32,000 nt of DNA from Candidatus Thorarchaeota archaeon (GCA_048882505.1 JBHLRO010000025.1:9772-41771); one strand, 5' to 3'; positions 17,723 to 24,067 are shown, numbered from the stretch's first letter. Translations and numbers: made by a program. The notes: generated by a model not told the origin, from the sequence alone.

Positions 17723-18979
17723 TTATTCAATCAAAGGAAAATGGCACGCTACCCAATGATTTGAACGCTGCTCTATGAGTTCTGGTTCATTTTCAATGCA
17801 TTTTGAAGGATCCACGATAGGACAACGAGGATGGAATCTGCAACCTGACGGAGGATTAATTGCATCTGGTACCTCCCCATGCGGCAAATCATATTTCTTT
17901 TCTCCAGGAATAGGTGTCGGAACTGCATCTATTAGGGCTCTCGTATACGGGTGGAGCGGATTTCTGAATATGGCCTCGACCTCTCCCATTTCAACGAGTT
18001 TTCCAACATACATTACCCCTATTCGGTCACCAAAATGCCTTGCTGTGGCCAGATCATGGGTTATAAAGAGAATTGAAAGATTATGTGCTAATTGGAGTGA
18101 TTTCAATGAGTCTAGAATACCTGCGCGTAAACTGACATCCAACATACTTGTAGGTTCATCAGCGATTATTAGCTCTGGATTCAATATTAATGCTCTCGCT
18201 ATGGAGGCTCGCTGCAGTTCACCGCCGCTAACTTCATGGGGAAATTTCGTATAATATTGTTGGGAAGGAGTTAAACCGATTTCTTCAAACACCTCCAGGA
18301 TGCCTGAATCAGCAATTTTTCTTCTACGAAACCAAGAATGATAGAAGTAGCTTCCCAAGGCGACAGTGAAAAGGGACACTCCAAAAAGAGCACTAAGGGT
18401 AACTATTGTCGAATCCTGAATAAAAAACACAAGCGTGAGAGCCAAAAGTGAAATTATACTACTTAAAATAAGAAAAAACTCCGAGTATACGGAGTTACGA
18501 TATCTCTTTCTGACCTCGGTGTCCGTAATCCTATTGTGAATTAATAAGGGATGAAGAACTGCATCCCCCAAACGCATACGTGGATTTAATGAGGAAAAAG
18601 GATTTTGAAAGACGACTTGAGATTTTATATTTCCTTTACGGGGTATTAACTCATTGTGTGTAATTTCATTGTTCTTCCACTTGAATTTTCCTGTTGTGGG
18701 AGTCTCTAAACCAACCAATATATTAGCAGTAGTCGTCTTTCCACATCCAGACTCACCAACCAAGCAGAAAATCTCTCCTTTATTGATTGAAAACGTGATA
18801 TCATCAACAGCTTTCACATATGTCTCTTGTCGAGTGAACAGTCTATCTAGAGTTCCATGCTCAACTGGAAAGTATTTTCTAAGGTTAGTTACTTCTATTA
18901 AAGTCTCCTTTTCTTTCTTATCAATAAGACCTGACATTGTCACTCCCTCACTATCTAAAATGGGATTCATAGGATTCAT
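17723..18979 (-). CDS. dppF: Oligopeptide/dipeptide ABC ATPase (OppF/DppF) with an internal two-TM insertion
   Basis: Walker A 'GESGCGKT', Q-loop 'VFQNP', signature 'VSGGELQR', Walker B 'IIADEP', H-loop 'ITHDL', C-terminal 'GCRFHPRC...C...ACH'. Hydrophobic insert at aa ~165-216. Confidence 0.92.
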   Translation of the reverse strand: MNPMNPILDSEGVTMSGLIDKKEKETLIEVTNLRKYFPVEHGTLDRLFTRQETYVKAVDDITFSINKGEIFCLVGESGCGKTTTANILVGLETPTTGKFKWKNNEITHNELIPRKGNIKSQVVFQNPFSSLNPRMRLGDAVLHPLLIHNRITDTEVRKRYRNSVYSEFFLILSSIISLLALTLVFFIQDSTIVTLSALFGVSLFTVALGSYFYHSWFRRRKIADSGILEVFEEIGLTPSQQYYTKFPHEVSGGELQRASIARALILNPELIIADEPTSMLDVSLRAGILDSLKSLQLAHNLSILFITHDLATARHFGDRIGVMYVGKLVEMGEVEAIFRNPLHPYTRALIDAVPTPIPGEKKYDLPHGEVPDAINPPSGCRFHPRCPIVDPSKCIENEPELIEQRSNHWVACHFPLIE

Positions 18980-19949
18980 GAAACATCAGACATTTGGCAA
19001 TATGTTGACTCTTTGACCCTATCATTATTAGCTCTGGGCTTTCTTTTCTGCAGACATCTTTTACAAAAGTGCACCGATCGGCAAAGGAACATCCTTTCGG
19101 GGGATTTCTTAGATCGGGAGGATGCCCGGGAATAAAACTAAGCTGCTTCTTTTCTTTCTCTTTGACATTGGGAATCGCCTTGATCAAGGCCTGTGTGTAA
19201 GGATGAGCTGGGCTTTCAAAGATAGTAAAGGTATCGCCTACCTCAACTATTTGACCGGCATACATTATGGCAACTCGATTTGTGATTTCCGCTACTACCC
19301 CCAAATCATGTGTAATGTAAATAACTGTCAATTTGTACTCTCTAATGATATCTTTTAGTAGCTGAAGGAGTCTTGCCTGAACCAAAACATCAAGTGCTGT
19401 GGTAGGTTCATCAGCAATAATCATTTTTGGATTCAAAATCAAGGTTAACGCTATTACAATTCGTTGTTGCATTCCGCCCGAAAATTGAAAGGGATTGTCT
19501 TTCAAGCGTGTGGGAGGGATTTCCAAACGGTGTAACAAAGATTTCACTTCTTCCCATTTTTCCTCAGTCCACAGCTCGTGTACTTTCAGAGTATCGATAA
19601 AATGATCTGAAACCTTCTGAAGAGGATTCAGGGCATTCTGAGAAGCCTGAAACACCATAGATATATCAGAACCACGAAGTTTTTCCATTTCCTCCTCGGA
19701 TAGCTGTACCAGATCTTTCTTATTATATAGAATTCTCCCTGAACGAATAACCCCGCCCTGAAGTAGGCCAAGGATTGAATAGCCCAGTGTGCTTTTTCCA
19801 CATCCAGATTCTCCCACCAGGCCTAAAACTTCTCCTTTGTCAATGGTGAGAGAGACATTATCTACCGCTCTCACATTTCCGTCAAGTGTGGGATATTCAA
19901 CGACCAGGTTCTGGATTTCCAATAACGGAGGTTTATCGCTATTTCGCAT
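18951..19949 (-). CDS. dppD: Oligopeptide/dipeptide ABC ATPase (OppD/DppD)
   Basis: 'GESGCGKS', 'FSGGMQQR', 'IIADEPTTALD', 'ITHDL', C-terminal Cys cluster 'GCSFADRC...C...C'. Start placed at ATG 19949 (track: 19997). Confidence 0.93.
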   Translation of the reverse strand: MRNSDKPPLLEIQNLVVEYPTLDGNVRAVDNVSLTIDKGEVLGLVGESGCGKSTLGYSILGLLQGGVIRSGRILYNKKDLVQLSEEEMEKLRGSDISMVFQASQNALNPLQKVSDHFIDTLKVHELWTEEKWEEVKSLLHRLEIPPTRLKDNPFQFSGGMQQRIVIALTLILNPKMIIADEPTTALDVLVQARLLQLLKDIIREYKLTVIYITHDLGVVAEITNRVAIMYAGQIVEVGDTFTIFESPAHPYTQALIKAIPNVKEKEKKQLSFIPGHPPDLRNPPKGCSFADRCTFVKDVCRKESPELIMIGSKSQHIAKCLMFHESYESHFR

Positions 19950-20889
19950 TATTTCGTCTACTGATGAGGGGATTGAACTTATCATTGAGTGCATCACCTA
20001 TAAGTGAAAAAGCAAAGGAGAGAACAAATATCATTAGCCCAGGGAAGAAAATCAGCCAAGGATAGGTGCGAACCCTTGAAAGAGATCTGTTTTCATATAC
20101 ATCATAACCCCAATCAGCTGTTGGAGGTTGTATACCGAGTCCTAGGAATGCTAAACCAGCATTTGTAAGAATTGCATCAGTCATATTGAAGGGAATGATC
20201 GCAATGGTAGAGGCCAAAATATTGGGAGTGATATATCTCAGCAAAATGGTTAACCTACCTGCTCCCATAGTTTTCGCAGCGTCAACGTAACCTTCTTTTT
20301 TTATTTGTAAAACTTGAGCCCGAACCACCCGAAAATACGTCGGAATGTAAACGACCGCAGTTGCAAAAGATACAGCGGCAACTGTTTTTAAGATACCGAA
20401 AGCAGCAAGGTAAATAGCGAAAACTATGGCAAATAATAAGGAAGGAAAAGAATAGATCGCATCTGCTATTAGAGTCAGTAGACGGTCCATTTTTCCCCCA
20501 AAGTATCCCGAAAGGACACCCAAAGGTATCCCAAATATATATGCCAGAATAGTTCCTGAAAACGCCATTAATAACGCTATTCTGGCCCCGTATATTACCC
20601 GTGCGAGTACATCGTAACCCAAGAGATTAGTTCCAAAAGGATGTTCTAAAGAAGGGGGGGCAAAACGTAAACTTGGAAACCGTTCATCGTAGGAATAAGG
20701 GGAAATGACATCTGCAAATAAGGCCATAACCAAAATCATAACAAAGAGAAATATCCCCAAAGTTAACGTTTTATTATATTTTATAGATCTAATAAGGCCG
20801 ATAAACGAGGATTTAACCGATAGACCTTGTTTTTTCGGTGTTAAAGGGGGAGTGACCAATTTTGTTTCACCAAAAAGATTTTCGATCAA
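19939..20889 (-). CDS. dppC: ABC transporter permease (DppC/OppC)
   Basis: 'PPSLEHPFGT..LGYDVLARVIYGARI', EAA loop 'YVDAAKTMGA', 'LAFLGLG', 'IGDALND'. Confidence 0.93.
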   Translation of the reverse strand: MIENLFGETKLVTPPLTPKKQGLSVKSSFIGLIRSIKYNKTLTLGIFLFVMILVMALFADVISPYSYDERFPSLRFAPPSLEHPFGTNLLGYDVLARVIYGARIALLMAFSGTILAYIFGIPLGVLSGYFGGKMDRLLTLIADAIYSFPSLLFAIVFAIYLAAFGILKTVAAVSFATAVVYIPTYFRVVRAQVLQIKKEGYVDAAKTMGAGRLTILLRYITPNILASTIAIIPFNMTDAILTNAGLAFLGLGIQPPTADWGYDVYENRSLSRVRTYPWLIFFPGLMIFVLSFAFSLIGDALNDKFNPLISRRNNAK

Positions 20890-22115
20890 TATGTTATTCT
20901 TGGATCAACTAGTGCATAGTAAATATCACTAATCAAGCTTAACAGACTTACAATAAGAACTGTGACAATTACTACGCCTTGGACTGCAGGATAGTCCTTT
21001 TCTGCAATTGCAAGAAACAAATATCTTCCTAAACCAGGTATATTGAACGTTGTTTCTGTTAGAATTGCACCAGCTAGCAATAGAGCAAACTGAAGACTTA
21101 TCAATCCGATCGTAGGTACCACCGCGTTTTTCAAAGTGTATCGATATATAACAGTTTTTTCGGGGATTCCACGTGATCGTGCGAAGTGAACGTAATCTTG
21201 CTCTAATTGAAAAATCATGTTTGTTCGAACTTGTCGTGCGATTACTGCAGCAATCAGCATTCCTAAAGCTAGACCAGGTAGAATCAGGTGAATGATTATA
21301 TCATAGGTTAAATCGGGGCGCCCACTTAATATGGTATCAATTATCCAAATATTTGTATAATGAGTGAATTCCCCGGTTGCTCCAGCGCTTATCGGGGATA
21401 GTGCGGGGAGAGGAAAAATCATAAACGAAATTATACCGATAACTATCACAAAAAATGAGACTCCAAATAGTTTGTTGGGTTGAACGGAAATACCAGCAAT
21501 CTTGGTTGTATCTCTCTTGTTAATAATCCTTAGAAAAACACCGACTAATAAACTGAAGACTCCCATTATTATGATTATTATAGCTATAGGGCGTAAAAGC
21601 GGACCTAGAAAGCCAGATCTTGAAAACATCATTTGAAGTAAAATTCCTACCAGGAATATAGGGATCGAATAATCACCTATTGTGTACAAGCGAATAGAGT
21701 GGTCCTCTGCTTTGTCTCTTTTAGCACCAGAAACACCACCTAATATAATCCCTAATGGCACACCTATCAAAGTTCCGAAAGTTCCCAACGTCAAAGTGAG
21801 GCCAAATGCCTGTTGAATTTCCGCGGTTACCAAACCATTTGTTCTGAAAGACGTTCCAAAATCAAATGTTACGGCACGAACCAAGAATTCAAAATACTGT
21901 TCATGTAGCGGTTTATTCAGCCCAAATCTCTCCGAAATAAGTTCTACTTGATCGGGTGTCAGTTTCGGATTCAAAACAAGAGCAGGATTTGCCCCAGGTA
22001 GTACACGTAACAAGAAGAAGACGATGGATATTAATAGCCAAATCATAGGAATAAGAAGCACTATCCTTGTAAAAATAAAGGAACGTAATGAGCCCAATTT
22101 TATCAGAATCTCCAA
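20886..22115 (-). CDS. dppB: ABC transporter permease (DppB/OppB) with an extra two-TM insertion
   Basis: 'RVLPGANP', 'GLNKPLHEQY', 'DFGTS', 'HLILP', EAA loop 'DYVHFARSRG', 'GLGRYL', 'DYPAVQG', 'DPRI'. Extra hydrophobic segment at aa ~166-234. Confidence 0.92.
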   Translation of the reverse strand: MEILIKLGSLRSFIFTRIVLLIPMIWLLISIVFFLLRVLPGANPALVLNPKLTPDQVELISERFGLNKPLHEQYFEFLVRAVTFDFGTSFRTNGLVTAEIQQAFGLTLTLGTFGTLIGVPLGIILGGVSGAKRDKAEDHSIRLYTIGDYSIPIFLVGILLQMMFSRSGFLGPLLRPIAIIIIIMGVFSLLVGVFLRIINKRDTTKIAGISVQPNKLFGVSFFVIVIGIISFMIFPLPALSPISAGATGEFTHYTNIWIIDTILSGRPDLTYDIIIHLILPGLALGMLIAAVIARQVRTNMIFQLEQDYVHFARSRGIPEKTVIYRYTLKNAVVPTIGLISLQFALLLAGAILTETTFNIPGLGRYLFLAIAEKDYPAVQGVVIVTVLIVSLLSLISDIYYALVDPRITY

Positions 22116-22411: not shown

Positions 22412-24067
22412 CTAATGCTTTCTTCTGGATCTGAGAAAGATCACAACGACCCCAATGGAAATGATTGCGACCAAAGTTGGGAGTGTTTCGAACCCTGGCG
22501 TTGGTGCTGCTGGTGCCACAATAGAGCTATAATGAACATTCTCCGAGGGTTCTAATAGTACACCTGTAACGCCTGGTTGCCATGCAGTAAATTGAGAGAG
22601 CATTGTAAATAGTGGAATTAGTGGAACATCTTGGGCCATCAGTTTTTGGGCATTTTCGGACGCTGTTTTTCTGTTTGCTGCATTTGAATCGGTCAGGATA
22701 GTATCAATGTAGTTGTCCATATTGGTATCAGAATAATTAACACCAAAGCTGACAGAACCCGAACCAAGGAAGGGATCTATATAGTTACTTGCGTCTGGGT
22801 AGTCAAACCACCATCCAAGGAGATAGAAGCCCATGGTTTTTCGCTGATCGAGATATTGGGTCCATTCTACGTTTTTAAGAGTTACATCGAAGAATCCTGT
22901 CGCCTCGAACTGATTTTTCAGCAATTGAGCAACTGAAGCTTCTGTATCCCCATAGTGTGTTGGAGTGTACCACATATCAAGAGCGAATTTATTGGTGTCT
23001 TTAACATAACCAGATTGAGTCATGTTTGCTGCTACGTAAGCTTGCGAAGGGCCGTCCATAAATGTATCTATGTGGCTAGTGAATATCTTTGGAACCATAC
23101 TAAATAGAGGTTCGTTGAAATTATCAAAGACCGTATCAACGATCTCGGTTCGATTAATTGCGGCAGCTAGTCCTCTTCTGACATTAATGTCGGTATACAT
23201 ATCCACGTTGATAAGCAGATACCTAATTCCTGCGGAGGACTTGGTGGCAAATTCCAAGTTATCATTTGCCATTACAGAAGCCATCTCATCAGGCCCAAAA
23301 ACACGATGGGCAACATCGATATCACCATTCTCGAGTGCAGTTAACATCGTGGAAGCATCGGTATAGAATTTTACGATTATTCTGTCGTTTTTAGGTGCGG
23401 TACCGAAGTAGTTTGGATTGGGGACCAAAATAAGTTCGACATCTTTTGTCCACGTATCAATCATATAGGGACCTAGTCCGGCCGGTAGCGTATCTGCAGA
23501 TCGTCCTGATAACTCGTCTGCGGGCAAAGAAATCGTACTAATGGGCCAAGCAACTGTATATACCAATCTTTGGAGAAAAGTAGCATCAGCAATGTTCAAG
23601 TAGATTTTGACATGCGTTTCGTCAACTACCTCGGTTTTGTTAACAACATCTGTCAGTAGAAAGGCAGGTTCTCCATCAGGTAGAGCTAGGACTCGATCAA
23701 TATTCCATTTCACAGCTGTTGCATTGAACGCTGTACCGTCACTGAATTTAATTCCCGTCTTTAACGTAAAAGTATATTCCTTGCCATCAGTGCTAATACT
23801 GTAATCTTCGATAATAGGCCCTTTCTGAGCATCGGTCGAATCCAATGGCATTTCCATTAGTCCATGCGTGATTTGGACGAGGACATTAGACGAAAAATAG
23901 TCGTAAGAGTCCGCTGGATCCAATTTAGTCACTGAATCTGTGGTCCCAATAACAACAGTTCCACCTTGCGCTTGTACGGGTAGAACAGGTGCCATTGCGA
24001 ATAATCCCACACAGAAGACTAAGACTATAAATATAGATAATCTTTTCCTGTTTTTCACAGTGTTCAC
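22412..24067 (-). CDS. dppA: Family 5 ABC solute-binding protein with signal peptide and C-terminal PGF-CTERM-like anchor
   Basis: N-terminal basic plus hydrophobic signal, 'LDPA', 'YTFTLK.GIKFSDGT.FNA..VKWNI.R', 'GLGPY', 'NPNY'. The C-terminus is 'PTPGFE' + TM + 'RSRRKH'. Confidence 0.92.
   Translation of the reverse strand: MNTVKNRKRLSIFIVLVFCVGLFAMAPVLPVQAQGGTVVIGTTDSVTKLDPADSYDYFSSNVLVQITHGLMEMPLDSTDAQKGPIIEDYSISTDGKEYTFTLKTGIKFSDGTAFNATAVKWNIDRVLALPDGEPAFLLTDVVNKTEVVDETHVKIYLNIADATFLQRLVYTVAWPISTISLPADELSGRSADTLPAGLGPYMIDTWTKDVELILVPNPNYFGTAPKNDRIIVKFYTDASTMLTALENGDIDVAHRVFGPDEMASVMANDNLEFATKSSAGIRYLLINVDMYTDINVRRGLAAAINRTEIVDTVFDNFNEPLFSMVPKIFTSHIDTFMDGPSQAYVAANMTQSGYVKDTNKFALDMWYTPTHYGDTEASVAQLLKNQFEATGFFDVTLKNVEWTQYLDQRKTMGFYLLGWWFDYPDASNYIDPFLGSGSVSFGVNYSDTNMDNYIDTILTDSNAANRKTASENAQKLMAQDVPLIPLFTMLSQFTAWQPGVTGVLLEPSENVHYSSIVAPAAPTPGFETLPTLVAIISIGVVVIFLRSRRKH

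Follow-up and report, generated by a model that had tools for sequence, protein, structure and literature searches.

In the standard picture of ABC importers, soluble ATPase subunits contact the permeases through a coupling helix alone. The window analysed here, a stretch of 32,000 nucleotides assigned to a Candidatus Thorarchaeota archaeon, contains a DppF/OppF-type ATPase gene whose product has two hydrophobic stretches nested within its ATPase domain. Our question was whether this importer ATPase could itself be a membrane protein. The gene belongs to a minus-strand operon of five genes, encoding a family-5 substrate-binding protein, two BPD_transp_1 permeases, and the ATPases DppD and DppF (Table 1). 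The order SBP-B-C-D-F is kept in eight complete related operons, and shorter loci agree where they reach. No conserved candidate partner gene was found adjoining in the neighbourhood of the related operons. The genome that holds the window has four Opp/Dpp-type ATPase pairs, and only the window's DppF has the insert; the three other pairs (genome G000, contigs C6:84336-85928, C5:133613-135628 and C1:248344-250275) are ordinary in length. The hairpin system is thus one accessory importer among four in this genome.

The core of DppF has the features of its family. Pfam finds ABC_tran (PF00005, 2.9e-27) and oligo_HPY (PF08352, 8.5e-20) in the protein, for which public gene calls begin at Met15 and give 404 aa. 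A look-up of RNA data listed no set that contains the gene. The Walker A motif, the Q-loop glutamine, the SGGE of the signature, Walker B with its catalytic glutamate, the H-loop histidine and four C-terminal cysteines are all invariant over 49 homologues, which bears out the statement of an earlier note on this DNA that every catalytic motif is intact. In E. coli DppD and DppF, the equivalent four cysteines are the ligands of a [4Fe-4S] cluster (PMC12136057), and judged by alignment the four-Cys region of the window's DppF is the counterpart of the E. coli DppF [4Fe-4S] domain. An AF2 model generated from the 49-sequence alignment has a mean pLDDT of 80. It matches E. coli OppF (8z21_D) with a Z of 33.1 and an rmsd of 2.5 over 311 aligned residues, and E. 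coli DppF (8z1v_D) with a Z of 31.8; the two E. coli matches cover 304-311 residues at 38-40% identity. About 85 structured residues do not align to the E. coli folds, and most of them belong to the hairpin and its stalk. In every feature tested except its predicted membrane integration, DppF is a bona fide PepT-family (TC 3.A.1.5) ATPase.

Direct alignment with DppF of E. coli K-12 places the insert between R138 and E139 of the E. coli protein. This site is in the helical subdomain, after the post-Q-loop helix and before the helix leading to the signature motif, and it confirms the location given in the earlier note. The same note had put the extra sequence at about 50 residues; the extra stretch is there, but its size has to be corrected to 67 residues (158-224). 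When HMMER was run against all solved chains, the alignment came in two pieces that left DppF residues ~150-221 unmatched, with no counterpart in M. tuberculosis OppD, E. coli OppF or E. coli DppF. Within the insert we recovered both of the hydrophobic helices described earlier (window 18341-18478), together with the basic clusters RKRYR and RRRK that flank them, and the partner DppD (348 aa) does align without an insert, as had been claimed. The stalk that leads into the hairpin terminates at the nearly invariant Glu167 (Glu in 48 of the 49 homologues), and the external turn is 2-4 residues long in most hairpin-bearing homologues. In the AF2 model this region is a pair of long helices that run antiparallel (154-186 and 190-220; pLDDT of 88-96 by 10-residue block) and break at 187-189. 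Hydropathy, taken as the Kyte-Doolittle mean over 19-residue windows with a membrane-segment threshold of 1.6, peaks at 2.74 (residues 169-187) and 1.95 (191-209), and never exceeds 1.2 in the rest of DppF. The insert is strongly hydrophobic, and is predicted to be neither soluble nor amphipathic.

Table 1. Operon genes and DppF features, in window coordinates; DppF residues are numbered from the first ATG.
Feature	Window position	Strand	Details
Family-5 substrate-binding protein	22412..24067	-	551 aa; first gene of the operon; SBP_bac_5 6.9e-69
DppB-type permease	20886..22115	-	409 aa ORF; 386 aa in public call
DppB two-helix insert	21411-21596	-	~62 extra residues; gap against solved DppB chains, from alignment
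DppC-type permease	19939..20889	-	316 aa (Pfam)
DppD-type partner ATPase	18951..19997	-	348 aa; no insert (Pfam, alignment)
DppF/OppF-type ABC ATPase gene	17723..18979	-	418 aa, counted from first ATG
Walker A GESGCGKT, residues 75-82	18734..18757	-	Invariant columns
Q-loop Gln125	18605..18607	-	Invariant; aligned to E. coli DppF Q106
Insert relative to E. coli DppF, 67 residues (158-224)	18308..18508	-	Alignment and residue mapping
Basic polar N-terminal stalk, residues 150-167, with RKRYR	18479..18532	-	K+R 0.267 per residue over 49 homologues
Hydrophobic helix 1, residues 168-187	18419..18478	-	Hydropathy 2.74
Acidic turn QDS, residues 188-190, predicted extracellular	18410..18418	-	Charge counts; AF2 break 187-189
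Hydrophobic helix 2, residues 191-213	18341..18409	-	Hydropathy 1.95
Basic C-terminal flank HSWFRRRKIAD, residues 214-224	18308..18340	-	K+R 0.254 per residue over 49 homologues
Signature SGGELQR, residues 251-257	18209..18229	-	S251, G252, G253, E254, Q256 and R257 invariant
Walker B LIIADE, catalytic Glu275	18155..18172	-	D274 and E275 invariant; E275 corresponds to E. coli DppF E187
H-loop His308	18056..18058	-	Invariant
Four-Cys C-terminal region, C380, C386, C394, C412	17744..17842	-	Invariant Cys columns

An unusual insert may also be the product of error or decay: a chimeric assembly, a miscalled gene, a mobile insertion or a pseudogene. For this locus such an origin is hardly credible. 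One contig from a different study spans 17830-18463 with 16 substitutions and no indels, and another, from a second sample of the source study, spans 18461-18797; jointly, these two contigs from other runs cover both insert junctions without indels. The reading frame is uninterrupted, and no catalytic motif is damaged. Sixteen Asgard genomes and about 50 protein clusters have this insert at an identical site, so it is not peculiar to this assembly, and it has been retained across a strongly supported clade (see below).

How far does the hairpin extend? Each of the 51 related proteins inspected has kept it. Insert and hydrophobic segments are both present throughout the 49 most similar protein clusters (51-68% identity, 395-569 aa), and those among them that bear names are labelled Hodarchaeota, Kariarchaeaceae, Heimdallarchaeota, Hermodarchaeota or Promethearchaeota. 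A profile of 95 positions, comprising the insert and its immediate flanks, found, at E <= 0.001, 5 matches among 1.84 billion cluster representatives. These are OppF-type proteins without exception; the insert is thus no common property of DppF families. Among 400 genomes of the same phylum (Asgard), 16 match, the window's own included. Apart from the window's genome, the matches are to 9 of the 21 genomes of its genus and to a few from three further families within its class, and two families of 31 and 135 genomes gave no match. Five same-genus genomes without a match, chosen for high completeness, have only paralogues at 44-54% identity; the entire orthologous operon is missing from them, and they contain no hairpin-less version of the ortholog.

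We also collected OppF loci with a full-length alignment from a species-level genome collection. Only one of the 80 nearest loci, the Asgard one, has the insert. The other 79 have no hydrophobic segment, their maximum hydropathy between Walker A and the signature being below 1.6, and the distance between these two motifs is 102-134 residues, compared with 176 in the window's DppF. The ESM Atlas yielded only large clusters, of 329-377 aa, from which the insert is absent. At many bacterial and archaeal loci, matches of 1500-1850 bp suggested sizeable inserts at first sight, and these were rejected: they are adjacent OppD and OppF hits joined together, or long open frames in high-GC DNA, at loci with a canonical Walker A-to-signature distance and no hydrophobic segment. 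In public annotation the hairpin proteins are labelled as ordinary ATP-binding subunits, and topology-based surveys consequently miss them. A survey of the Asgard transportome mentions the PepT family without such a feature (PMC7997004). The literature covered, which includes work on Asgard ABC peptide transporters and lies mostly outside subscription journals, describes no membrane helices inside an importer ATPase domain. As we found no published description of an importer ATPase with a nested membrane hairpin, the layout appears so far to be undescribed.

Is the hairpin in the membrane? We predict that it is, from its hydropathy, its charge bias and its pattern of conservation. On the scale used above, the membrane helices of DppB and DppC from the same operon score 1.66-3.09. 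Of the 979 residues that make up helix 1 in the 49 homologues, 5 are Lys/Arg and 2 are Asp/Glu (K+R 0.005 and D+E 0.002 per residue). The flanks have a K+R frequency of 0.25-0.27 per residue, and the turn has D+E at 0.31 and K+R at 0.027. The arrangement is that of a hairpin, in which a short turn joins two hydrophobic stretches, each of ~20 residues, and the basic flanks are on the predicted cytoplasmic side. Its charge layout, which as the earlier note proposed follows a positive-inside pattern and does so in all 49 homologues taken together, predicts an N-in/C-in hairpin. Since both halves of the ATPase fold are cytoplasmic, this is the sole hairpin topology compatible with it. With two segments above 1.6 and positive-inside charges, DppF is predicted to depart from the usual description of a soluble, peripheral subunit.

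Conservation within the hairpin was then compared with that of the core. Mean pairwise identity is 0.27 in the helix columns versus 0.70 in the ATPase core, and polar residues are almost absent; columns that are variable yet nonpolar fit exposure to lipid. No conserved polar or ligand-type residues were found inside the hairpin helices in the homologue alignment. Helix 2 has a conserved face made by small residues at 193, 200 and 207, with a 100-degree periodicity (p = 0.002 versus shuffles); for helix 1 the conservation periodicity at 100 degrees is not significant (p = 0.45). Glu167 and Tyr211 hardly vary, and both are predicted to lie at the inner interface. With a peak of 1.95, helix 2 is only moderately hydrophobic, so that it may need helix 1 or a partner for insertion; summed roughly, without regard to position, its values on the Hessa scale come to +0.6 kcal/mol.

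Helices of this length could instead lie outside the membrane, as a soluble hydrophobic hairpin or arm buried in a protein interface, for example between ATPases or between transporter complexes. Antiparallel inserts between the Q-loop and the signature do exist: the coiled coils of Rad50/SMC and the arm of ABC-F are soluble, charged helical inserts that reach DNA or ribosomes. Like them, the window's hairpin is an antiparallel helical hairpin that projects from much the same part of the ABC fold and is tolerated by the core, and the AF2 model, which shows a helical hairpin, says nothing of its environment. Unlike them, it is uncharged, of a length that matches the bilayer, and positive-inside. 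Some 20 positions that stay near-uncharged over 49 sequences while varying freely, with basic flanks and an acidic turn, make a lipid-exposed pattern, and the hydropathy is equal to that of the permease helices. We therefore regard a soluble arm as improbable.

The reading we prefer, to which we give a probability of roughly 60%, is that DppF is a working PepT ATPase and an integral membrane protein by virtue of its nested two-helix hairpin, which anchors it beside DppC. In E. coli DppBCDF, DppF docks on DppC, and N113 and E124 of DppF touch the DppC coupling helix (PMC12136057). By analogy, DppC is the expected docking partner of the window's DppF. Residues N132 and H143 of the latter align to N113 and E124, and the insert begins 14 residues past H143, so that the hairpin would emerge beside the permease-facing surface and, we infer from the alignment, point toward the membrane. 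A basic helical stalk of ~14 residues could span to the inner leaflet. Helix 1 (168-187, 20 residues) would then cross the bilayer, a turn of three acidic residues would lie outside, and helix 2 (191-213, 23 residues) would return through the bilayer to the basic flank and the next subdomain helix. The hairpin would fix DppF in the membrane adjoining DppC and would in effect be a covalent anchor without an end-to-end gene fusion.

The helical subdomain of E. coli DppBCDF rotates by ~20 degrees between states (PMC12136057). A hairpin rigidly continuous with that rotating subdomain would make a second link between motor and permease, this one within the membrane; such a rigid anchor might also hinder the ~20-degree rotation and not help it. 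That the hairpin lies packed beside DppC, anchors DppF and couples motor to permease is what we infer from this geometry. A complex prediction of DppB and DppC with the isolated hairpin (residues 148-226) gave an ipSAE of 0.00 in both runs, which were made without controls and speak neither for nor against such packing.

How does this layout compare with known systems? E. coli DppBCDF (8z1v) and OppBCDF (8z21) share with it the fold, the motifs, the oligo_HPY four-Cys domain and the operon order SBP-B-C-D-F. The solved E. coli DppF and OppF are, however, peripheral and soluble, with no extra residues at the junction where the window's DppF has 67 more and two membrane-type helices. Half- and full-size ABC transporters such as MsbA and Sav1866 have their ATPase and membrane domains fused end-to-end. 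As is predicted for the window's DppF, their ATPase is covalently tied to the membrane, which fixes both stoichiometry and location. Their membrane domain, on the other hand, lies before or after the ATPase and forms the transport path, whereas in the window the helices are nested and the path is that of DppB and DppC. If the ATPase is itself inserted in the bilayer, as is probable, and by the same subdomain whose motion accompanies the ATP cycle, it is a natural experiment on how much freedom this subdomain needs, on how importers assemble and hold together, and on whether force can be transmitted inside the bilayer as well. The hairpin is carried by Asgard archaea of Heimdall/Hod type, a group of interest for the origins of eukaryotes on account of its membrane biology, and we have no evidence tying the hairpin to eukaryotic ABC proteins.

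To place the hairpin in the family, we removed the insert columns from an alignment of 136 ATPases and built a tree (LG+G4, quick search, no bootstrap). On it, 50 of the hairpin-bearing proteins group together as a single clade, of Heimdall/Hod-type Asgard OppF, with an SH-aLRT of 99. The 51st, from a distant Asgard family (locus L102), falls in a poorly resolved sister group with bacterial and Thermoplasmata OppF. The tree is compatible with either one or two origins of the Asgard hairpin.

DppB in the window's operon is enlarged as well. Its extra hydrophobic helices, joined by a basic loop, lie in the external loop after TM3, and the insert is common to six other clusters (Hodarchaeota, Hodarchaeales, Kariarchaeaceae). 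We considered whether the hairpins of DppB and DppF form an obligatory co-evolved pair. This was ruled out, as nine related operons (eight of them distinct) have a hairpin DppF beside an ordinary DppB of 338-353 aa. From the same operons it follows that the DppF hairpin is older than, and independent of, the DppB hairpin. The distant L102 operon combines a hairpin DppF with a DppB of 462 aa (L102 2754-4142, minus strand), in which a hydropathy scan flags two extra segments. Read by eye, the added stretch consists of two hydrophobic repeat units within the loop after TM3, and this DppB appears to be a second, larger enlargement of the permease.

Nested helices are not confined to Asgard archaea. 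An OppF-type ATPase of Thermoplasmata (L110 204-1943, minus strand), from the soil genome G401, has four hydrophobic segments and a distance of 281 residues from Walker A to the signature. It belongs to the same transporter family and, like the window's DppF, has an even number of hydrophobic helices. In the alignment, however, its four helices precede the Q-loop strand, a site different from that of the Asgard hairpin, and the Asgard insert profile did not detect them. A different site and the lack of detection by the profile mean that the L110 insert is independent, and that nested membrane helices arose at least twice in the OppF family. On this sequence comparison the Asgard and Thermoplasmata nested helices are convergent. 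A broader proposal, which we offer tentatively and think possible at best, is that nested hairpins are a recurrent convergent feature of archaeal peptide importers, and that in the Asgard clade the DppF hairpin may seed a bilayer subdomain that couples or gates the motion of the helical subdomain.

Some relatives carry larger versions of the insert or of other parts of the protein. Four homologues have an insert of 151 residues, which probably contains a long external segment. P0125 (L082 4-1638, plus strand) is an OppF-type gene whose 5' part is lost at the contig start; before the usual C-terminal flank it encodes at least ~280 residues that, by eye, consist of repeated hydrophobic hairpin-like units. 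In P0036 (561 aa) the hairpin is accompanied by an extra domain of ~150 residues between the C-terminal cysteines, which Pfam identifies as PAS_4 (PF08448). P0038 is similarly long, at 569 aa, and has no PAS hit on record. Extra sequence also lies between the C-terminal cysteines in the Thermoplasmata OppF proteins of L036, L038 and L110.

Under the tentative broader proposal above, some lineages would have enlarged the hairpin subdomain by a longer external segment, longer hydrophobic repeats or extra DppB hairpins, and this subdomain would give coupling between motor and permease additional to that of the coupling helix. Expansions of the turn, such as the 151-residue inserts and the P0125 repeats, are not obviously needed by a pure anchor, and this brings in the principal rival, in which the hairpin is in the membrane and its main role is regulation or sensing, not anchoring. 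The external end is evolvable, as the four 151-residue inserts show, P0125 has by eye a series of hairpin-like repeats, and DppB has gained extra hairpins in two lineages too. The insert is also part of the subdomain whose position changes in the course of the ATP cycle (PMC12136057), and the length of P0036 and P0038, with the nested PAS-type domain of P0036, suggests that the clade collects regulatory modules. Yet the turn of 2-4 residues in most members is too short to bind anything outside, the helices have none of the conserved polar or ligand-type residues that were looked for, and no conserved partner gene adjoins the operon. We consider a mainly regulatory role unlikely, although it is the alternative to take most seriously, and retain the anchor beside DppC as the better account.

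A DtxR-type repressor gene follows P0125 and also its relative P0123 (L083), and in L083 it is followed by FeoA and FeoB; these neighbours are hints of metal-related uptake. In the window, the binding protein (22412-24067, minus strand) ends in ...TPGFETLPTLVAIISIGVVVIFLRSRRKH, which comprises a PGF-type motif, a hydrophobic stretch and a basic tail, a C-terminus resembling in sequence an archaeal C-terminal sorting or anchor signal.
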